A DNA stretch of 28,978 nt from a virus. The stretch is from the UHGV virus genome UHGV-0201389, one strand, 5' to 3'. Shown piece by piece: positions 7,878 to 28,403 of the stretch (position 1 is its first letter; each line of letters starts with the position of its first letter). The notes under the pieces were generated by a model. It was not told the DNA's origin and searched no databases. It saw only the letters and a program-made list of their open reading frames with translations. Both the position numbers and the translations under genes were made by a program.

Positions 7878-10800
7878 ATGCAATCAATCCAATTTAAACG
7901 CACACAGACGGCTGGTAAAAAGCCAACGCCGGAACAATTACAGGTCGGTGAAATCGCTATTCAGATGGCAGACCATGTAATTTATACCAAAGATAAAAAT
8001 AACGCAGTAGTTCAAGTAAGTGTTTCTCCTGAAAGCCATAATGCTTTAAACACGAAAGTAGACAATAACAAGAAAACTACTGATTCTACTATCGCGGCAA
8101 ATAAAACCGAAGCTGCTAACGCTCTGGCTACCGCTAAATCTGAACTGAATAACACCATTACCACGAAAGATACAGCAACCAATAAGCGCATTGATGCTAC
8201 TAACACCACTGTTAGTAACTTAACCCAGACAGTTACGGCAAATAAAACCGACGCTGACAGCAAACATACCACTTTAACTAACACTGTTGCGGCAAACAAA
8301 TCAGCTATTGAAACTACCGTAGCGAATAACAAACGAGATGCGGACAATAAAATCTCAGCTTTAACCACTACGGTTAATGACAATAACACCGCGATCAATA
8401 GCCGTGTTGATGCCACCAACACCAATGTTAGCAATCTGACCAAAACCGTTACAGCTAACAAGTCTGATGCTGATTCTAAGATCTCCAGCTTAACGAGTAC
8501 CGTTGCGGCTAACAAATCAGCCATTGAAACTACGGTAGCGAACAATAAACGCGACGCTGATACGAAGATCACCAACTTAACCAACACTGTTAATAGCAAC
8601 CACACCGCCATTAACGCGAAGGTAGACAAAAACAAGACCGATGCAGATGCAGCGATTGCAGCCGCTAACCGTCGAATTGATGGTATTGAAGGTAGTGCCG
8701 ATGCTGCTTACATCAAGAAGAATACCAATACCTATCATCATGGCTATCTGTTAAGCAAGACTGCTAACTACTTTGATGATACCGGTGCTCGTAACCTTGA
8801 TTATTTTGGTGCGTTTCGTCCGAACAATGCCGAAGGGTGGGGTAACTTAATCCTTAACATTCCTCATTCTGGCGGTAAAGCACACGGTCGCGGCTTTGAG
8901 TTCCATTATGGGTCTAGCTCATCTCAGGTTAAAACCTATGGCTTTGATGCTAACGGTGCTAAAAGATTCAGCTATCGCATGTATCACGAAGGTGATAAAC
9001 CTACACCATCGGAATTGAACGTTTACAGCAAACAAGAAGTTGATCGTATGTTTGTTAAAAACGTTAAAATGTCGGTTCCTTCTGGTGATGCAACTCGTGG
9101 ATATTTTAAGATTGCAACCGCAATGATTCCGCAGCAAGGCAGAATGGCATTTATTCGCATCTATGGTGGTAACGGTTATAACGTTAATTCTTACGATCAA
9201 GTTGACTTTCTTGAAATTGTTATCCGTAGCGGCAACGGAAACCCTAAAGGAGTTAGTATTGCTGCATATCGTCGAAATGCTAAAAATATTCATCAAGTAT
9301 TTGCGGTTAACACTTCCGGTGATAACTACGATATCTACGTTAACTACGGTCGTTATACTGATAACGTTATTGTCGAATATGGTAAAACTAACGATGTTAC
9401 ACTGACGGTACATGACGTTCCTGAAATAACTCTCGTTAAGCCGTCCACTGGTGTTACTGATGGTAAAGTAATTACCATGTTTAACACAGAGAACAAAGCC
9501 GGAACTATTCGTTTTGATGATAATACACAGGGAACTTACGATATTATCAGTTTGTGTAATGATACTGGTGATGGTAAAAAATATCTTCGTCAGTTCCGTA
9601 GTAAATCAGGTCATACTATTTGGCATGAAACTGTTCAGGGTAGCGTGTACCGCCTAGCTACTGGCACTACTGACTCAAACGAAGTTCTTAAAATTACCGA
9701 CCGCACGCTGCAAACTGGTCGTGCTGTTCTTGATGGTGGTAATATTCGTTTAGAACGCCAGACAGGGAATAGTAACCTTGTTGAATATTGGGATCGTCGT
9801 AACGGTGCTAACGTTCGTCAATCATGGTTTGGTTTTGGTAATGCCGACACTAACGCATTCCAGATCTATAGTGATGCTGGTAAAAACAACTTTGCGTTAG
9901 AACAAAGCGGTCAGATCTCTCTTAATGTTGGTGCAACAAAAATTGTCCATACCAACGGGCAATATATTTCAACTAACGCTGATGCATATCGTATGATTTA
10001 CGGTAATTACGGTGCATTCTGGCGAAATGATGGTGTTAAAACCTATCTTCTGTCTACCGCCGAAAATGATAAATGGGGTAGCTGGACTGGAAACCGTCCA
10101 TTCATTTATGAATTTAGTTCCGGTAACGTTAATTTAGGTGGTGATTCCAATAAATCCGCATTGACCTTAGAAGGTGCAAGCAAAGCCGCTCGATTTGGTG
10201 GTCATGTTTATACTGGCGGTAACTTACATAATACTGGACAGCATATAACGATGGAAGCCGGACTTGCTGGACAATCCCGCGATTTTATTCGCTTTAACCA
10301 TTGGGGTGATAGCAGTAACGGTCGTGATAACGTCCTGTATGTGGAAGATAGCAAAGGACGTCATTTCAGCACCGAGCGTAATATGGCTACTGGTGGATTG
10401 AAAGCAAACTTCTTAGGAGACTTTGAAGTTGGTGGTAAATTGACATGGGGTAAAGGTACAGCACAATCCTCGTTTAACTGTCGTGTTTGGGGTAATGCTG
10501 ATCGTAAACAGGTTTTAGAGTGGGCTGATGAAAGCGGTTGGCATTTCTATAGCCAGCGTGCAGGTGGTCCAGGAACTACAGCGATTCAGTTTAGTGTAAA
10601 TGGACAAATCAACGCACAAAACTTGAACGTTTCTGGTAAGGTTACTACCCCGCAAATTAGCGCATTTGGTGTAAACGTTGCTAATGGATTAGGTGGCAAC
10701 TCAATTGTTTTGGGTGATAGTGATACTGGCTTTAAGCAAAACGGCGACGGTATTTTAGATGTATATGCTAACAATGTGGCAGTAATGCGTTTTACTTCCG

Positions 10801-11156
10801 GTGCAATCACCGCAAACAAAGCAGTAAACGTAACTGGTCGAGTTACACCAACTGATTACGGTAACTTTGACGGTCGTTATATCAAAAAGACGAAAGGTTG
10901 TACTAAAATCTGGTCCGGTACTCTCCCTGGTAATACCCAGACCGGAGGTTTACCACAAGATCTCCGCTTCCGTAATGTGTGGATTCTTGACGCCGCAGGA
11001 TTTAACCATTTTATCCGTTTTGCCAATGACGGGAACTATTACCTGGCTGGTAACGGTGGATGGATTAAAATCCAACTTCACTCTAGCGGTAAAATCTTTA
11101 AGAACATTCAAGATTCTAACTTCGTTCCGCGTGAAATCTGGGTAGAAAACGAATAA
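7878..11156 (+). CDS. Tail fibre protein (1092 aa) with conserved fibre N-terminal motif and internal tandem repeats
   Basis: N-terminus KRTQTAGKKPTPEQLQVGEIA resembles the attachment motif seen at the start of many phage tail fibres; ~72-aa Thr/Asn/Ala-rich tandem repeats; Gly/Asn/Tyr-rich C-terminal half. Confidence 0.8.
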   Translation: MQSIQFKRTQTAGKKPTPEQLQVGEIAIQMADHVIYTKDKNNAVVQVSVSPESHNALNTKVDNNKKTTDSTIAANKTEAANALATAKSELNNTITTKDTATNKRIDATNTTVSNLTQTVTANKTDADSKHTTLTNTVAANKSAIETTVANNKRDADNKISALTTTVNDNNTAINSRVDATNTNVSNLTKTVTANKSDADSKISSLTSTVAANKSAIETTVANNKRDADTKITNLTNTVNSNHTAINAKVDKNKTDADAAIAAANRRIDGIEGSADAAYIKKNTNTYHHGYLLSKTANYFDDTGARNLDYFGAFRPNNAEGWGNLILNIPHSGGKAHGRGFEFHYGSSSSQVKTYGFDANGAKRFSYRMYHEGDKPTPSELNVYSKQEVDRMFVKNVKMSVPSGDATRGYFKIATAMIPQQGRMAFIRIYGGNGYNVNSYDQVDFLEIVIRSGNGNPKGVSIAAYRRNAKNIHQVFAVNTSGDNYDIYVNYGRYTDNVIVEYGKTNDVTLTVHDVPEITLVKPSTGVTDGKVITMFNTENKAGTIRFDDNTQGTYDIISLCNDTGDGKKYLRQFRSKSGHTIWHETVQGSVYRLATGTTDSNEVLKITDRTLQTGRAVLDGGNIRLERQTGNSNLVEYWDRRNGANVRQSWFGFGNADTNAFQIYSDAGKNNFALEQSGQISLNVGATKIVHTNGQYISTNADAYRMIYGNYGAFWRNDGVKTYLLSTAENDKWGSWTGNRPFIYEFSSGNVNLGGDSNKSALTLEGASKAARFGGHVYTGGNLHNTGQHITMEAGLAGQSRDFIRFNHWGDSSNGRDNVLYVEDSKGRHFSTERNMATGGLKANFLGDFEVGGKLTWGKGTAQSSFNCRVWGNADRKQVLEWADESGWHFYSQRAGGPGTTAIQFSVNGQINAQNLNVSGKVTTPQISAFGVNVANGLGGNSIVLGDSDTGFKQNGDGILDVYANNVAVMRFTSGAITANKAVNVTGRVTPTDYGNFDGRYIKKTKGCTKIWSGTLPGNTQTGGLPQDLRFRNVWILDAAGFNHFIRFANDGNYYLAGNGGWIKIQLHSSGKIFKNIQDSNFVPREIWVENE
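8187..8618 (+). repeat. Two tandem ~216-nt (72-aa) repeat units inside the tail fibre gene, with a degenerate partial copy upstream
   Basis: RIDATNTTVSNLTQTVTANKTDADSK...AANKSAIETTVANNKRDAD recurs as RVDATNTNVSNLTKTVTANKSDADSK...AANKSAIETTVANNKRDAD; nucleotide copies differ mostly at synonymous positions. Confidence 0.8.
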
Positions 11157-22636: not shown

Positions 22637-22701
22637 CTGGCGCAAATTGACGATAGCGCCCGTGTCGCGCAGAGTACGAGAAATCAGAATTGAAAGTTGT
22701 T

Positions 22702-22857
22702 ATGGCGGCAGATGATGAGATTTTGCCACTTGACACAAAGATCGCTTATTATCAAATGGTAATGGATTTTGCTGGTCGTGCACTGGATATTGTTAAATCT
22801 CGTGGGTTTGCGATCAAGAATGCTATAGAATTGCGTATGTTGGAATCCGGTCGATAA
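22702..22857 (+). CDS. Small hypothetical protein (51 aa), uncertain
   Basis: Sub-60-aa ORF translated manually; weak RBS; lies between two terminators. Confidence 0.3.
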   Translation: MAADDEILPLDTKIAYYQMVMDFAGRALDIVKSRGFAIKNAIELRMLESGR

Positions 22858-22877
22858 ATATATGCAGGAGGAATTTT

Positions 22878-22964
22878 ATGAGTGAATGTATTTGTAGTGT
22901 ATGCAAACAGCCAGTAGAATTGGCGTTTGTGATTAAAGTAAACGACCATGTTGTTCACCCTTAA
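22878..22964 (+). CDS. Cys-containing micro-protein (28 aa, MSECICSVCKQPVELAFVIKVNDHVVHP), uncertain
   Basis: Consensus SD AGGAGG 7 nt upstream of the ATG; CxCxxC motif; directly upstream of a bidirectional terminator. Confidence 0.35.
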   Translation: MSECICSVCKQPVELAFVIKVNDHVVHP

Positions 22965-22979
22965 AATAACTAATTATCA

Positions 22980-23012
22980 AAAAGCCCCAACCGAAAGGAA
23001 GGGGCTTAATTT
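22980..23012. terminator. Bidirectional terminator at the strand switch
   Basis: AAGCCCC...GGGGCTT stem with internal CC-gaaa-GG, T runs on both strands; abuts the helicase stop codon. Confidence 0.75.
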
Positions 23013-24506
23013 TTATGCGAGCATTATACGTTTTTGAGTCCAGTCGAATTTATCGGATATATAACACTTTATTCTTTCAAGCGCATGACTAACAGCATAA
23101 TTCTTACGGGTAACTTTTCCATTCTTACCCACAATGCAAAGGTCGTCTATCAAATCCCATACTACCGCAATTGCTTTACTACCATGTTTCCTAAGAGCAC
23201 GTCCTATTGATTGCCGGACAATGGTTGATTCTTTAACCGGATGACCAAAGATGACATGGTGTAGATTCTTAATCGAAACACCAGTAGAGAAAACACCATA
23301 GGAGGCAACTACAATCAATCCTTTCTCATTTTCAGCCATTTTCTTTAAGGCATCGCGTTCGGCGGTGGTAATCTCACTGGAAACGTAATAAACCTTATCG
23401 TAAACGCGCTGTAATGCATTATAAAGCATTTTTCCATGCTTAGAGTACCGGAACATCAAAAATACGTTTTCTTGCTTTCTAGCGAGTTTTAAGGCCAATT
23501 CACAAGCCAGTTTATTCCTTGCTTTGTGACCATTGATGAATTTAATCTCTTCCTGATAATCTTTACCCCGCATTGCTTTACATTCTTCATCCTTGTACTT
23601 GAGGAAGAGAGCATTAATCTTAAGCTGGGTAACTTGTCCGTCATCCATCAATTGTTTTATTGCTACTATCTTCTGAATATCACCAAACAACCCGACATAT
23701 TGCATTAAATGGCATTTTGATTCTTTCGGGGAACCAGTCATACCGATTTTGAACTGGCAGTGATTCATTCCGTTGATGATGTTGGTGATATTCTTTGCAC
23801 TGGCACGATGTGATTCATCAACTATCAACATTCCATATTGTCGGAACCATTCAGGAGGCATCTTGCAAGCTGATTGCCATGTACTGACAGTGATTAACCT
23901 GTCTCCCGGATGTTTCCCGCTACCACTCATCATTGTATGGATTGCTTCATGAGGGAATAGCCTATAATCGACAAAATCATCCCTCATTTGAACCACCAGC
24001 GATGTAGTCGGGACAATGATTAGAATCTTTCCGGTGTAGTTCTCCAGATACCAACGAGACAGCATACAAGCAATCAATGACTTACCCGCACTGGTAGGAA
24101 GAACCAGCATTCTACGGCGATTATGGATACCCTGAAATACTGCCTCCCTTTGATACCAGTAAGGATTGATTTTATTGCTACCGGAATACACTTCTAAAGA
24201 GTCAATCCATGAATCAATCTGTTCTTTGGTTACATCTTCCTTCTCAAGCAATCTGGGGTCTACCCATACGCTATAGCCCATGTTTTTAGCGAAGATACCC
24301 AATGTTTTCAATAATCCGATTGGCAGGGTATTTTCATGCGTAAACAGTCTTATCTTTCCATCCCAGCCGGAATATTTGTAGCGGGGGCTAAATCTAGCCC
24401 CTTCAACCTCAAACGAGAAATAATCTCTTAATTCCATCCCAATGGAAGGAGAGCATTCAACCTTAACGAAACTGTAATCTTGAAAATGAATGTTAATATC
24501 TTGCAT
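23013..24506 (-). CDS. uvsW: UvsW-type SF2 DNA helicase (start at ATG 24506; the listed ORF extends to GTG 24515)
   Basis: Walker A LPTSAGKS, DExH-type motif II IVDESH, and an N-terminal domain (HFQDYSFVKVEC...LRDYFSF) characteristic of T4 UvsW-like helicases; ATG overlaps the stop of the upstream gene (TAATG). Confidence 0.85.
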   Translation of the reverse strand: MQDINIHFQDYSFVKVECSPSIGMELRDYFSFEVEGARFSPRYKYSGWDGKIRLFTHENTLPIGLLKTLGIFAKNMGYSVWVDPRLLEKEDVTKEQIDSWIDSLEVYSGSNKINPYWYQREAVFQGIHNRRRMLVLPTSAGKSLIACMLSRWYLENYTGKILIIVPTTSLVVQMRDDFVDYRLFPHEAIHTMMSGSGKHPGDRLITVSTWQSACKMPPEWFRQYGMLIVDESHRASAKNITNIINGMNHCQFKIGMTGSPKESKCHLMQYVGLFGDIQKIVAIKQLMDDGQVTQLKINALFLKYKDEECKAMRGKDYQEEIKFINGHKARNKLACELALKLARKQENVFLMFRYSKHGKMLYNALQRVYDKVYYVSSEITTAERDALKKMAENEKGLIVVASYGVFSTGVSIKNLHHVIFGHPVKESTIVRQSIGRALRKHGSKAIAVVWDLIDDLCIVGKNGKVTRKNYAVSHALERIKCYISDKFDWTQKRIMLA

Positions 24507-25075
24507 TAGTTCCACTCCACACTTGCAATATTCTTTATATTGTTTAGTGATTTATTGCAGTAGTGGAATGTTTCAGTTTTGCCGTATTCAATCCCGCCTA
24601 TACCCACATCCAACATTCTCTTTATTGCTCGCTCAGTGGCTAGCGCATGTTTCATTGATGGCATTTCACGAGCATAGACAATATCAAAGTTATGACCGGG
24701 ATTGCGTAAGCCCAGATTAACCCTACGTTTGATAATCGATTTTGTTACACCAAATTTACCAATATCGCCGGATTGCATCACATAGAGATATGGTACACCC
24801 GCTTTATATTGAAAATAATCACTCTTGAAACATACACAGCGTTTGCCTTCATTAAGCAGGTTAGTAGCTGATTTGTCGGCTCTATCACCGCAGCGAGTAC
24901 ATGTAAGAGCAATTCTCGTGTGAAGCCCTTTAAACTCACCCAGAAAGCCATGAAAGACTAACGGTAAGTCATTATCTTTGATGTGAGTAAGAATGCGTTG
25001 TTCTAATGCTGGTGGAGTTACAGCACGGGATGATTTAGGAGTAAAAACAATATCTTTAGCCATTACTGGAATCAT
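24506..25075 (-). CDS. Zn-ribbon + T5orf172/GIY-YIG-like domain protein (189 aa)
   Basis: CTRCGD...CVC zinc-ribbon-like Cys cluster followed by YLYVMQ...KFGVTKS...R...GKTETF, matching the T5orf172 (GIY-YIG-like) pattern; SD GTGAGG upstream; coupled to the helicase gene. Confidence 0.65.
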   Translation of the reverse strand: MIPVMAKDIVFTPKSSRAVTPPALEQRILTHIKDNDLPLVFHGFLGEFKGLHTRIALTCTRCGDRADKSATNLLNEGKRCVCFKSDYFQYKAGVPYLYVMQSGDIGKFGVTKSIIKRRVNLGLRNPGHNFDIVYAREMPSMKHALATERAIKRMLDVGIGGIEYGKTETFHYCNKSLNNIKNIASVEWN

Positions 25076-25229
25076 ATAGACCTCACTTTAACTTATAGGC
25101 AAAACCCTCAATATGGTTGGTTTGTAACTTTAGGGTCGCGGATTATATATCAAAGTTAGTACAGATGCAATAGTGAGATAATTTTATCCAATAAATAGTA
25201 GTGAACTTATAATTTTAGAGGAAACTACT
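25076..25229. promoter_or_regulatory. AT-rich divergent intergenic region with candidate sigma70-like promoter for the + strand gene
   Basis: TTGTAA (25122-25127), 16-nt spacer, TATATA (25144-25149); SD AGAGGA before the ATG at 25230; a leftward promoter for the helicase operon is expected here too but was not resolved. Confidence 0.4.
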
Positions 25230-26255
25230 ATGAAACTAGCATTTGCCAAAGACATTGATTTTGTGAAAGTTGGTAAGCAGAAAACACCGCAATTCTACGA
25301 AGAAATCTGTATTGAATATGCACACAAGACTAAGAAGACTTTCAAAGGATTTATCCTACCGTGGGAAGCCAACCGAACCAGAACAATGTTTATTGACAAT
25401 GAAAGCGGTAAAGAATCTACACCGATGTTGATCAACGTTCGTACATCATGGGGGAAGGTTAAAGGATGCAAACTGGACAAGGGTATCAGTCCGACGGTAA
25501 AACATAAGGCAATGAATCTTTCCAGCGAGAAGAAGCAACAAAAATTAGAGAAACTATACTCAGATGTGAGAAAAGCCGTGGAACACGGTAATAATAAACT
25601 GATTCGAATCACAGGAGAGTTACCAAGCCGCTATAAGTCATATGCTGAATGTAAATGTCTTATCCATAATGAAATCTTTGTTCGAAATTGTCGGGACTTG
25701 ATTCATAAAGGTAGCGCCGCGTGTCCTCAGTGCTTATCTGTCATGCGTTCTATGCAAAATGGTATTTCTCATTACAAATATCATGGAAAAATCAGACCTG
25801 TATCTCTCTATATCCAGTCTCTAGATAAAGAGTTCATCAAATTTGGCATCTCTATCAATCCAGAAGCACGAATGAGAGAACAACAAAGAAACTCACCATT
25901 CATTCATAGTCTGGTTTATACGCATGAATTTAAGGAAGGTTGGAAAGCAGTTGATGTTGAATATGGAATTAAAACCATTTTTAAAGGAAAGAAACTAACC
26001 ATTGATGATTTATCGACCGGATATACAGAAACACGGGATTACAAGTTACTCTCAGAAATTATTAAATTCGTTGATGATTACATCAAAACCGATCCTACCG
26101 TACCGCAATACATTCAAGACGAAAATGAATTCTGGTCACAGATTGGCGGTGATTTTGAACTAGAAGAATCAACGTTCGTGTTTCCAGATACCAGCGATGA
26201 GGAATATTACAATAATTTAGCAGAACTTGATTTAAGCCCTTTAGACACTCTCTAA
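25230..26255 (+). CDS. Zn-ribbon + T5orf172/GIY-YIG-like domain protein with extra N-terminal domain (341 aa)
   Basis: CKC...C...CPQC Cys cluster followed by LYIQS...KFGISINPEAR...GYTETRDY, paralogous in architecture to the 189-aa protein on the opposite strand; acidic C-terminus. Confidence 0.65.
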   Translation: MKLAFAKDIDFVKVGKQKTPQFYEEICIEYAHKTKKTFKGFILPWEANRTRTMFIDNESGKESTPMLINVRTSWGKVKGCKLDKGISPTVKHKAMNLSSEKKQQKLEKLYSDVRKAVEHGNNKLIRITGELPSRYKSYAECKCLIHNEIFVRNCRDLIHKGSAACPQCLSVMRSMQNGISHYKYHGKIRPVSLYIQSLDKEFIKFGISINPEARMREQQRNSPFIHSLVYTHEFKEGWKAVDVEYGIKTIFKGKKLTIDDLSTGYTETRDYKLLSEIIKFVDDYIKTDPTVPQYIQDENEFWSQIGGDFELEESTFVFPDTSDEEYYNNLAELDLSPLDTL

Positions 26256-26270
26256 CGCAATTAAATTAAA

Positions 26271-26292
26271 AAGGGGTACATCTGTACCCCTT
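26271..26292 (-). terminator. Perfect 22-bp palindrome serving as terminator for the recombinase gene (alternative reading: recombination site)
   Basis: AAGGGGTACA-TC-TGTACCCCTT; on the minus strand the stem is followed by TTTTTAATTT, 37 nt downstream of the recombinase stop. Confidence 0.6.
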
Positions 26293-26328: not shown

Positions 26329-28008
26329 TTAAATTCCAAATTCTTGCAATGGACCTGGTATTTCTTCTTCTGGTTTCCAGTTCTTATCTGTCAGCATGTC
26401 TAAACATGGATGCAGAACAAGCCCGTTACTTTCCAGAATCTGCCTATCATTGATAGTCTTCAAATCAATGAATATCCGGCCTTTCCTCGTTCCTCTTGAA
26501 TTTTCTATTACAACTCTCTGGGTCTTACCATCAACGTATTCCAGTACAAACAAGTTTTTGTTCCTGTCAATCCTTCTACACCCGATCCGCTTTAGAGCTT
26601 GCTTAATCTTAAACCGGACCTTGATTCGTTCCTCATTGTAAACATCTTCTAAATCAAATTCTGCGAGCTTCTCCCAGCCTTGAGAGTCCACAGAATACAT
26701 TTCCTCTTCTGCCATCTTAATCTGATTGTAGAGTGTTTCACGCTCGCTATTAAGGGCAGTAATCTGATCGGCTAGTTCCTTCGTTGCTCCTGTCATAGCA
26801 GAAAGGGCGATCAGGTTATCAATCTTGCGTGATATTTCATCAATCTGTACTTTCAACGCCGGAACCGGGTTAGCCTTATCCTCAGCAATCCAGATTTTAT
26901 CAGCCAGCAATTGCAATACAGCTTTCTCTAATTGGTCGCCGCGAAAACTCCAGTTTGGATGCTCGCAATCAAGTCTACGTGAACGTGTCGCATCACATGT
27001 ATAACGATACTGGTCAGAACGTTTGTTTGTTCCCTTCACTTTAACCATAGCGCAACCGCAATGATCACATTTCAATAGGCCAATGCCACTAAGCAAGGGG
27101 ATCGGTTTAACTTCTTCCTTATCTCCAAAATTCCATGCTCTAGCACCAATATTTTTCTTAAGGTGATAGAACGTAGGGTCGTCAATAACACGAGGGTAAT
27201 AATTGTTTAACTCATAGTTAACGCCATCTACAGAGACCTCCTTGATACCAATCAAAGCGCGGGTATGGAACAATCTTTCAACCATTGCCCGTGACCATTT
27301 TGAATGCTTCTTATTACTAACCGCTGGTGGTGGTGTATATGTCTCGTTAAGGTGATCCAGTATTTCGGCGGTTGAACGTCCATTCTTCCGTAATTCCACA
27401 ATCTCCTGAACAACAGGGAAGTATGTCGGATGAGGCAGCACATAACCGGAAGTGGTATCAGTCCACCACATATTCTTTCCGACTTCCTCGATAGCAACAG
27501 CCGGATTCTGGGGATTTTCTTGATGAGCTTTAATCTTAATCAATGCGCTTGAGTTAGTACGATTGCGCTTAGTCTGGCTTTCCTCGTTAGCCCTGGCAAA
27601 TAGCATGACACTCAAGAGTAAATCGATGGGATTAGCATTAACCGATTCACGGCTATACACTCTGCCATCCATACCAGTGACAATAGTTATTCCCCTACGG
27701 ATAATCGAGAGAAATAGCTCTTGTGCTTCAATGATGGACTGGCGAGAGATACGGTCCAAGTTTTCCACAACCAACCAGCTACCAACAGGAACGGATCGAC
27801 CAATCTCATCCAGAAAGCGGGATAATGCACCTGTTTTACTGTTAGCCCCTTTGAATGCTGATACACCAAAATCCTGATAGCTTGTAACTAGCTCAAGATC
27901 ATATTTTGCGGCAATCTCTGCGGCTGTTCTCTTCTGGCGTTCATAAGAACTACCATCCGCTTGCTTCATAGACGAGAAGCGAATATACGAATACAGTTTA
28001 GTTTTCAT
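26329..28008 (-). CDS. Large serine recombinase (integrase/resolvase family, ~559 aa from ATG 28008; the listed ORF extends to GTG 28059)
   Basis: N-terminal resolvase motifs YSYIRFSS (catalytic Ser), DFGVSAF, LVVENLDRISR; central recombinase domain; CDHCGC...C...C zinc ribbon; C-terminal coiled coil. Confidence 0.85.
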   Translation of the reverse strand: MKTKLYSYIRFSSMKQADGSSYERQKRTAAEIAAKYDLELVTSYQDFGVSAFKGANSKTGALSRFLDEIGRSVPVGSWLVVENLDRISRQSIIEAQELFLSIIRRGITIVTGMDGRVYSRESVNANPIDLLLSVMLFARANEESQTKRNRTNSSALIKIKAHQENPQNPAVAIEEVGKNMWWTDTTSGYVLPHPTYFPVVQEIVELRKNGRSTAEILDHLNETYTPPPAVSNKKHSKWSRAMVERLFHTRALIGIKEVSVDGVNYELNNYYPRVIDDPTFYHLKKNIGARAWNFGDKEEVKPIPLLSGIGLLKCDHCGCAMVKVKGTNKRSDQYRYTCDATRSRRLDCEHPNWSFRGDQLEKAVLQLLADKIWIAEDKANPVPALKVQIDEISRKIDNLIALSAMTGATKELADQITALNSERETLYNQIKMAEEEMYSVDSQGWEKLAEFDLEDVYNEERIKVRFKIKQALKRIGCRRIDRNKNLFVLEYVDGKTQRVVIENSRGTRKGRIFIDLKTINDRQILESNGLVLHPCLDMLTDKNWKPEEEIPGPLQEFGI

Positions 28009-28061
28009 ACCATTTCCAAACAAAAACGCCCCGACCGAAGTCGAGGCGATATTACACACAT

Positions 28062-28403
28062 TCAGTCTTTGAAGTCGATGGTCACGTTACCTTTAAGGGC
28101 AAGTTCCATTAAGCAACTGCGCTCATCCTTCATGCTCTTACACAATTTCATCCCATAAACGACGAGATTATCTTTCTCTTTCCAATATTTTTGTTTCTCT
28201 GCATAAACCTCGCTATATTCACTATCTTTGAGTGAGAGAGCATTTTCTAACTGGCTAATCTCCTGATTCAGATCCTTAATCTCAGCCTTAGTTGACCGGA
28301 TAGTCTCTTGATGTTGAGTATCGGAATAGTCATACCCACAAGCAAATCCACCAATGCCACCAACACACACAGAAACAATAATTGCGTAGATAGTCTTTTT
28401 CAT
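28062..28403 (-). CDS. Secreted or membrane-anchored coiled-coil protein (113 aa)
   Basis: N-terminal signal/anchor MKKTIYAIIVSVCVGGIGGFA with a possible cleavage or weak lipobox at FA-C; heptad-rich middle; two C-terminal Cys; SD AAGAGGA upstream. Confidence 0.6.
   Translation of the reverse strand: MKKTIYAIIVSVCVGGIGGFACGYDYSDTQHQETIRSTKAEIKDLNQEISQLENALSLKDSEYSEVYAEKQKYWKEKDNLVVYGMKLCKSMKDERSCLMELALKGNVTIDFKD

Follow-up and report, generated by a model that had tools for sequence, protein, structure and literature searches.

Two genes that face away from each other lie near one end of the virus genome UHGV-0201389, beside a segment of DNA that resembles a different group of phages, and they raise the question of what kind of proteins they encode and what they do at this locus. 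The stretch analysed, called the window throughout, is 28,978 nucleotides long. Open reading frame 1 (ORF1; 24506-25075, minus strand) encodes 189 amino acids, with one CapR-type zinc module followed by a T5orf172-type GIY-YIG domain. ORF2 (25230-26255, plus strand) encodes 341 amino acids, with two CapR-like modules, a MUG113/T5orf172-type GIY-YIG domain and an acidic tail. Both lie where the original prediction had placed them and are transcribed divergently from either side of 154 bp (25076-25229). Their assignment as CapR-module/T5orf172-type GIY-YIG proteins is secure. As to their role, ORF1 and ORF2 are probably free-standing homing endonuclease genes (HEGs), or in the case of ORF2 possibly a derivative of one, with a home range that would include the uvsW region of T4-like phages; nuclease activity, a target and homing are properties that we infer for them.

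The original prediction had read a T5orf172-like core in both proteins. Similarity to the T5orf172/GIY-YIG clan is statistically supported at the level of the family, while the window proteins taken singly stay below the curated T5orf172 cut-off. Both match PHROG 681, labelled 'endonuclease' (E 1.6e-18 for ORF1 and 4.6e-24 for ORF2). In Pfam, ORF1 alone matches CapR with E 2e-4 (21.9 bits against a cut-off of 24.2) and T5orf172 with E 0.015, and ORF2 alone matches MUG113 with E 2e-4 (22.3 bits, equal to the cut-off) and T5orf172 with E 0.022. Among ten members of the ORF1 family, CapR is found in all ten, T5orf172 in seven (best E 1.9e-5) and GIY-YIG in three, and ten members of the ORF2 family show MUG113 in seven and CapR in four. 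In a wider sample of 55 ORF2 relatives, CapR matches predominate (49 proteins, best E 4.6e-46), followed by MUG113 (17), DUF4379 (14), DUF723 (9) and T5orf172 (4). An exhaustive profile search returned 2661 cluster representatives at E<=1e-3, 693 of them at E<=1e-10, and many of these representatives contain several matched stretches, which reflect repeated modules. One paralog in a related prophage (L007_193) lies above the Pfam cut-offs of both CapR and T5orf172, and family matches are distributed patchily across T4-like and T5-like phages. A word-indexed protein search with the profile added almost no relatives, and an NCBIfam search gave nothing meaningful for the window proteins. Matches to YhaV toxin-antitoxin and IS5 models lay far under the cut-offs and were disregarded.

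The domain plan of ORF1 is simple. Its CapR-like DNA-binding module (24821..25018, minus strand; about residues 20-85, with the Pfam CapR match at 36-80) carries the zinc ligands C59-x2-C62...C80-x-C82, and these four cysteines (CxxC...CxC) are invariant across the family alignment. The GIY-YIG domain of the T5orf172 type follows (24560..24796, minus strand; about residues 94-172), with Y96/Y98, K107, G109, R117, E137, E148, G165 and T167-E168-T169 as conserved residues. In ORF2, module 1 (25236..25460, plus strand; residues 3-77) is homologous to residues 3-79 of ORF1 and has a CapR-like fold without zinc ligands; the AlphaFold2 models give both the same helix-strand-strand-helix order, and module 1 is the ORF1 module in fold and sequence with the cysteines lost. 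Module 2 (25524..25757, plus strand; residues 99-176) is a CapR-like zinc module with ligands C143, H146, C165 and C168, whose alignment columns are invariant or nearly so. When hhalign aligns the two proteins over their full lengths, it pairs module 2 with the zinc module of ORF1. The GIY-YIG domain of ORF2 occupies 25794..26045 on the plus strand (residues 189-272). Across 55 distant homologs its conserved residues are Y194, K204, G206, R214, E244, G264, E267 and T268, to which Y98, K107, G109, R117, E148, G165, E168 and T169 correspond in ORF1. The short motifs listed in the original prediction are all present, namely YLYVM, KFGVT, R117 and GKTET in ORF1 and LYIQS, KFGIS, R214 and GYTET in ORF2, in columns that are invariant or nearly so.

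The catalytic-type set of a tyrosine in b1, (Y/K)-x-G in b2, an arginine in a1 and a glutamate of the kind that binds metal in the superfamily is intact in both proteins and invariant or at least 90% conserved (Y96/Y98, K107-x-G109, R117, E148 and E168 in ORF1; Y194, K204-x-G206, R214, E244 and E267 in ORF2). The C-terminal domains of both AlphaFold2 models run strand-strand-helix-strand-helix-strand and so contain the GIY-YIG order b1-b2-a1-b3-a2; judging from these models, the conserved residues on b1, b2, a1 and a2 would correspond to the GIY-YIG catalytic set. Mean model confidence (predicted local distance difference test, pLDDT) is 84 for ORF1 and 74 for ORF2, where the low-confidence regions are the linkers and the tail. 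A Foldseek search against predicted viral structures gave 120 matches at E<=1e-3, reaching 2.5e-11, that extend over all of ORF1. They come from T5-like, T4-like, Aeromonas and jumbo phages, and their labels include CapR homology domain-containing, GIY-YIG domain-containing, T5 Orf172 DNA-binding domain-containing and homing endonuclease. The ORF1 family profile found nothing significant among sequences of the PDB, so the family has no solved relative by sequence.

The tail that ends ORF2 (26097..26252, plus strand) is about 50 residues long, acidic and predicted to be mostly disordered (pLDDT <55), and it ends in ...SDEEYYNNLAELDLSPLDTL. Several alleles that diverge elsewhere retain its final LDLSPLxxL, and the same tail is found in L001, in L007 and in the scar of L006, three of the related prophage loci described below. 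This C-terminal ...ELDLSPL(D/E)xL is thus kept among very divergent prophage alleles and is absent from the homolog in phage JK32; it resembles short acidic-hydrophobic partner-binding tails such as clamp-binding motifs, a likeness in appearance only.

Whether the two genes are related to each other is barely visible in a direct comparison, as pairwise BLASTP gives E 0.03 with 28% identity over 69 residues. With profiles made from alignments of close homologs built separately for each protein, the relationship is distant yet real: the proteins are about 20% identical and the profile-profile comparison reaches 97.3% probability and E 2e-11 over 150 columns, pairing residues 22-173 of ORF1 with 107-272 of ORF2. 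The N-terminal modules by themselves (ORF1 3-79, ORF2 3-76(77)) also match in hhalign (96.6%, E 4.8e-10), as do the C-terminal nuclease domains by themselves (E 6.2e-10). Because both halves match separately, ORF2 can be described as the ORF1 plan with roughly one more module and a tail. The original prediction thus held in both respects on which it could have failed outright, the similarity to the clan profiles and the homology between the two proteins. Its acidic tail is confirmed, while the single extra domain of about 150 residues that it gave to ORF2 is instead roughly one added CapR-like module. Likewise, the "duplicated" genes are paralogs, although not of recent duplication: as far as their sequences tell, they are distant paralogs that diverged anciently.

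The known systems that this pair resembles have been described mostly for lytic phages and their satellites. The CapR domain is common to the N-termini of ICP1 proteins with a C-terminal T5orf172 domain, which are predicted homing endonucleases, and its motif is of the type CxxC...CxC (Netter et al. 2021, PMC8096241). HEGs of the T5orf172 type carry one to several modules of the CapR, DUF723 or DUF4379 type as 'beads on a string'; they are lineage-enriched, adjoin essential genes, shuffle their domains and have domesticated offshoots, CapR and Odn (Barth, Dunham & Seed 2023, PMC10448857). ORF1 and ORF2 share with the CapR/T5orf172 HEGs of ICP1, T5-like and Plateaulake-like phages the variable number of N-terminal zinc modules and the C-terminal GIY-YIG domain of T5orf172 type, and also the free-standing position beside conserved genes, the patchy distribution and the shuffling of domains or alleles. 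In contrast to those lytic-phage genes, ORF1 and ORF2 reside in a temperate E. coli prophage and adjoin its integrase; module 1 of ORF2, and every module of the L011 allele, lack zinc ligands; the cysteine pairs of ORF1 are 17 residues apart rather than the 24-26 reported for CapR; several prophage alleles bear the conserved acidic tail; and the single-sequence Pfam scores of the window proteins lie at or below the curated cut-offs. Two members of the family show that it can be recruited into conflict between mobile elements. The CapR repressor of PLE satellites has the same CapR DNA-binding domain as ORF1 and ORF2, related to the N-terminal domain of the HEGs, and is a DNA-binding repressor, and Odn of ICP1 has the same T5orf172 nuclease domain with a RepA_N domain in place of the CapR modules.

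In T4, the neighbourhood of uvsW is already known as a site of homing. The gene for SegE, a proven GIY-YIG homing endonuclease whose target is uvsW, is placed there between inh and uvsW (Edgell et al. 2010, PMC2988022). In G5211, a Krischvirus (RB49 group), a SegE-type gene (Pfam SegE_GIY-YIG) immediately precedes uvsW at a distance of 4 bp. T4 SegE and its G5211 homolog have the position and orientation that ORF1 has here, tightly packed and directly upstream of uvsW, and they also belong to the GIY-YIG superfamily. Homology of ORF1 to SegE was considered and rejected, as the ORF1 family and the SegE-like protein of G5211 aligned in hhalign with a probability of 0.1%; neither ORF1 nor ORF2 matches Pfam SegE_GIY-YIG, and SegE has its GIY-YIG domain at the N-terminus with a different DNA-binding region, so that the domain order of ORF1 is reversed. 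The closest relative of ORF2 in phage records is a protein of 361 amino acids in Krischvirus JK32 (also in phage Whisky), 32% identical over 87% of ORF2 (E 7e-51). The JK32 gene forms an insertion of 1.1 kb with its own hairpin and ribosome-binding site, placed precisely behind the stop codon of uvsW and ahead of the uvsW terminator, and in G5211 the uvsW|uvsW.1 junction is uninterrupted. This is a clean empty site for the JK32 relative, a protein that is only 32% identical to ORF2. An ORF1 relative is found in RB16 between genes 14 and 15. The pattern across JK32, G5211 and RB16 is the classic distribution of free-standing HEGs, and the mobility signature that was looked for thus appears among Krischvirus phages as a free-standing insertion that is present or absent. 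Based on this distribution and on the SegE position of ORF1, the uvsW neighbourhood of T4-like and related phages is the most likely home and target region. A scan of IMG/VR for the locus found the same prophage lineage only.

The genome that carries the pair is not T4-like. With a terminase, portal, fused protease/capsid protein, tape measure, tail tip protein, endolysin and large serine recombinase, the window is a siphovirus-like phage. Among 5426 complete E. coli genomes, 58 carry related sequences as prophages in the chromosome. At most of the loci that were read, the prophage lies within ycdX, next to ycdY. A reading of the element as a phage-plasmid is ruled out by the absence of any DNA match in the plasmid collection. 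The gene pair occupies an accessory slot between the lysis genes (endolysin) and the large serine recombinase that serves as prophage integrase (26329..28059, minus strand; Pfam Resolvase, Recombinase and Zn_ribbon_recom, PHROG 95 integrase).

On the other side of ORF1 begins DNA of T4-like type. A UvsW-like helicase of about 497-500 amino acids (23013..24506, minus strand; Pfam UvsW_N 8.7e-36 and helicase domains) has its ATG (24506-24504) overlapping the stop codon of ORF1 as TAATG. The stretch 23044-24506 is about 70% identical in DNA to uvsW of Krischvirus G5211, and the similarity to T4-like DNA breaks off precisely at the ATG of uvsW. Selection on the helicase is purifying, with a ratio of nonsynonymous to synonymous substitution (dN/dS) of 0.08-0.15. 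Beyond it, 22662..22960 on the plus strand holds the 3' half of a T4-like uvsY and a uvsY.-2 remnant (85.7% identical to G5211 over 22662-22898 and 78% to JK32 over 22672-22960), and a sister prophage has a RefSeq-annotated 'UvsY' of 56 amino acids. Just past the uvsW stop, 22973-23016 holds a hairpin element of about 40 bp (AAAGCCCCAACCGAAAGGAAGGGGCTT with flanks). Roughly 150 T4-like phages of Klebsiella, Enterobacter, Citrobacter and Cronobacter have terminator-like sequences between genes that match it at 95-97.5% identity, a conservation far above that of the surrounding genes; the element may be a mobile regulatory element of the kind described below for RB49-group phages. A search of the whole window against Rfam found no RNA family. 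A second piece of Krischvirus type lies elsewhere in the window, where about 950 bp (8744-9695) of the tail-fibre gene at 7878-11156 match gene 37, which encodes the distal long tail fibre in T4-like phages of the RB49 group, at 78-83% DNA identity. At locus L011 (7574-8120), and also at L012 and L013, a full-length uvsY of 135 amino acids accompanies a different ORF1 allele, and these three loci contain two tandem fragments of about 275 bp from the gp27/gp51 junction of Krischvirus, of which one matches G5211 at 96.8% identity and the other JK32 at 98.2%. Such near-identity implies that DNA of virulent phages has been captured at this locus very recently and repeatedly. Past the integrase, L001 (7524-8570) and L018 (9002-9991) contain a third gene of CapR(x3)/T5orf172-like type (Pfam CapR 1e-28), so that in some relatives the family is present on both flanks of the integrase. 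The window has at that position an unrelated ORF of 113 amino acids (28062-28403), with weak PADLOC matches to models associated with retrons and defence-associated reverse transcriptases (DRT; RTasRmuC 4e-4) that are probably noise.

How the pair behaves among related prophages was followed in a survey of 26 E. coli genomes and by reading individual loci. Both genes in the form of the window are found in one genome, with ORF1 at 99.3% DNA identity and an ORF2 allele of only 60% protein identity. Twelve genomes combine ORF1 (92% in DNA) with an unrelated-looking ORF2 allele of 391 amino acids that has an extra zinc module, and L011-L013 combine the different ORF1 allele (45% in amino acids) with a cysteine-free ORF2 allele of 390 amino acids, at loci whose helicase and conserved ORF-end flanks are about 96% identical to the window. 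A further ORF2 allele, together with a CapR/T5orf172 paralog and no helicase, is present in eight genomes of the L007 type, and four genomes have neither gene and show deletion scars. The breakpoints between alleles fall at the ends of the reading frames, ORF1 differing over about 24577-25036 and ORF2 from 25240 to 26222-26252. These states of presence, absence and allele show that gain, replacement and loss have affected each gene on its own. Selection on both is purifying, with a dN/dS of about 0.10 for ORF1 and a dN of 0.31 against a dS of 1.6 for ORF2. The mobility that the original prediction had looked for in presence/absence polymorphism is thus borne out in that related E. coli prophages lack either gene or have a divergent allele in its place, independently for the two, while the gene-less prophage sites are deletion scars; in the prophages the direction is loss and replacement, not invasion of naive sites. 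At L006 (2075-2150) the prophage is without the whole island and is integrated beside a hicB remnant and ydcR instead of ycdX/ycdY. Its junction joins a fragment of an acidic gene of 148 amino acids, which is seen in L007, to the tail of an ORF2 allele.

The region between the two genes (25076..25229) is AT-rich as predicted, with a GC content of 31.2% against 41.8% for the whole window, a value that places it among the lowest 1.2% of stretches of 154 bp. A scan with the default sigma-70 consensus found no promoter in the spacer. A relaxed scan gave TTGCAT-17-TATAAT on the minus strand (-35 at 25165-25170, -10 at 25142-25147), about 60 nt upstream of ORF1, which has a Shine-Dalgarno GAGG at 25081-25084, and on the plus strand a perfect TATAAT (25208-25213) only 16 nt ahead of the ORF2 ATG, with GAGG at 25218-25221. 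Both -10 hexamers are perfect and the -35 elements weak; a promoter region shared by ORF1 and ORF2 is plausible from these motifs. An 8-bp inverted repeat, ATAGTAGT/ACTACTAT (25195-25202 / 25224-25231), encloses the plus-strand -10 and Shine-Dalgarno, and the hairpin that it forms at the start of ORF2 (-9.7 kcal/mol, z -1.8) is not significant by energy alone. The leader of about 50 bp to which it belongs, ATAAATAGTAGTGAACTTATAATTTTAGAGGAAACTACTATG, is invariant before every ORF2 allele, even where everything else differs. At the other end of ORF2, a GC-rich hairpin (26271..26292) between the convergent ORF2 and integrase genes is likely a bidirectional terminator; it is conserved at all related loci and is part of the junction sequences in L004-L007.

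Two precedents offer themselves for this arrangement. In several T4 HEGs, a promoter inside a hairpin able to mask the initiation region keeps the gene silent on read-through transcripts (PMC2988022), and the ORF2 leader resembles these, a likeness that is suggestive only. Conserved leader and terminator could equally serve as recombination handles for the exchange of cassettes, by analogy with the promoter/stem-loop (PeSL) cassettes described for the RB49/phi1 group (Arbiol et al. 2010, PMC2839356). There as here, a short conserved promoter or leader and a hairpin bracket exchangeable accessory ORFs, and part of the DNA exchanged here is of the RB49 group. The leader is likened to PeSL by its arrangement, its -35 is weak, and the host element is a siphovirus-like prophage.

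If ORF1 and ORF2 are HEGs, their N-terminal CapR-like modules would read a long DNA site in the manner of beads on a string, ORF1 with one module and ORF2 with two, and the C-terminal GIY-YIG domain would nick or cut close by. Recombinational repair from the genome that carries the gene would then copy the gene and its flanking markers into the cut genome. The pair is joined seamlessly to a captured uvsY'-uvsW segment of Krischvirus type, which the prophage may have acquired with or through ORF1 and ORF2.

Several observations weigh against reading the pair as active homing genes. The two window proteins reach only 16.3 and 15.7 bits with Pfam T5orf172, where the cut-off is 20, and the catalytic positions were mapped by the order of secondary-structure elements, without superposing structures residue by residue. 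The gene-less prophage loci might have been taken for naive empty sites, a reading that their junctions rule out, as all are deletion scars: L004 and L005 retain 105 bp from the end of ORF1 and 76 bp of spacer, together with a mini-ORF, MKLAYAA*, in which the start and the stop of ORF2 are joined, and L006 is a fusion through CCGGAAGA microhomology. Furthermore, plain homologous recombination at conserved flanks fits the breakpoints at ORF ends and the invariant leader as well as endonuclease-driven homing does, and strong purifying selection in an accessory slot of a temperate prophage is also expected of a domesticated gene that benefits the host.

This last point leads to the reading of ORF1 and ORF2 as domesticated HEG derivatives that act as anti-phage or exclusion factors, either as a nuclease, like Odn of ICP1, or as a DNA-binding repressor, like CapR of PLE, against superinfecting phages, most plausibly T4 relatives of the RB49 type. 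Although unlikely in our view, it accounts for much of what is seen at the locus, including the accessory slot by the integrase at the end of the prophage with an AT-rich leader and a terminator of its own, the arms-race-like combination of purifying selection with rapid replacement of alleles in near-identical backgrounds, and the accumulation of Krischvirus fragments (uvsY/uvsW, and in L011-L013 gp27/gp51 at 97-98% to current phages). Domestication of the CapR/T5orf172 family has precedents (PMC10448857, PMC8096241), and the anti-T4 nuclease PD-T4-3, a GIY-YIG protein, is among the fold matches. It is harder to reconcile with the plentiful relatives in lytic T4-like and T5-like phages, where a role in host defence would be senseless, and with the frequent deletion of both genes from related prophages. 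No PADLOC-DB v2 model matches ORF1 or ORF2 at E<=0.01, and the helicase has generic helicase matches only; of the mobile or defence cargo proposed in the original prediction, presence/absence and allele replacement give qualified support to the mobile part, and the defence part finds no match among the PADLOC models.

The alternative raised by homologous recombination is that cassettes are shuffled passively at short conserved sequences, with nuclease domains that may be inactive, or with proteins that act for example as transcriptional regulators, as the PLE CapR acts as a repressor (PMC8096241). The bracketing of every ORF2 allele by the invariant leader of about 50 bp (with -10, Shine-Dalgarno and inverted repeat) and the conserved hairpin terminator, the breakpoints at ORF ends, the 40-bp terminator element of T4 type at 22973-23016 that about 150 phages have in common, and the PeSL mechanism known from RB49-group phages (PMC2839356) are all in keeping with it. 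All catalytic-type residues are conserved over hundreds of distant relatives, and together with a dN/dS of about 0.1 this indicates that the nuclease domain is used; as the whole explanation, shuffling therefore appears quite improbable. It accounts for the movement of alleles and says nothing of what the proteins do, and so can hold alongside the HEG model without displacing it. The TAATG overlap suggests, in turn, that ORF1 is co-transcribed and translationally coupled with the helicase, and in L001-L003 and L011-L018 the gene that immediately precedes the helicase is always an ORF1 allele, with the helicase itself under purifying selection. Perhaps ORF1, and even ORF2, could be a functional partner of UvsW in a module for recombination or replication restart. 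The helicase persists without either gene in L004 and L005, and family members are found without the helicase in L007, RB16 and T5-like phages, which makes such a partnership very unlikely indeed. As the unrelated HEG SegE holds the same position in T4-like phages, the adjacency of ORF1 and uvsW points to a homing site rather than a partnership.

Homing genes at this locus might also take part in encounters between temperate and virulent phages. The island of uvsY'-uvsW and two CapR/T5orf172 genes would then be an interface at which diverged Krischvirus DNA provides homology arms while the nucleases cut the uvsW region of an infecting RB49-like phage, with either exclusion of that phage or gene drive into virulent phages from a prophage reservoir as the outcome. 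This is a rather unlikely proposal. If it were true, the Krischvirus fragments of 97-98% identity in sister prophages would be by-products of such encounters.

Nothing here overturns what is currently understood. What is new is modest: a hotspot in a temperate E. coli prophage, a physical link to captured RB49-group DNA, a GIY-YIG architecture in the position of SegE and unrelated to it, and CapR-like modules without zinc. What has been written so far on HEG-like genes of the T5orf172 type concerns mostly lytic phages (ICP1, T5-like and some Aeromonas and Vibrio phages) and their satellites, and here the family occupies an allele-swapping hotspot by the integrase in a prophage lineage that is widespread in E. 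coli. If the proteins are inactive, the locus is one more instance of selfish-gene litter in a prophage accessory region. If they are active, it would offer a tractable E. coli system for the movement of genes between virulent and temperate phages, and would be suited to the target specificity of CapR modules with or without zinc and to asking whether prophages turn such nucleases on the phages that superinfect their hosts.

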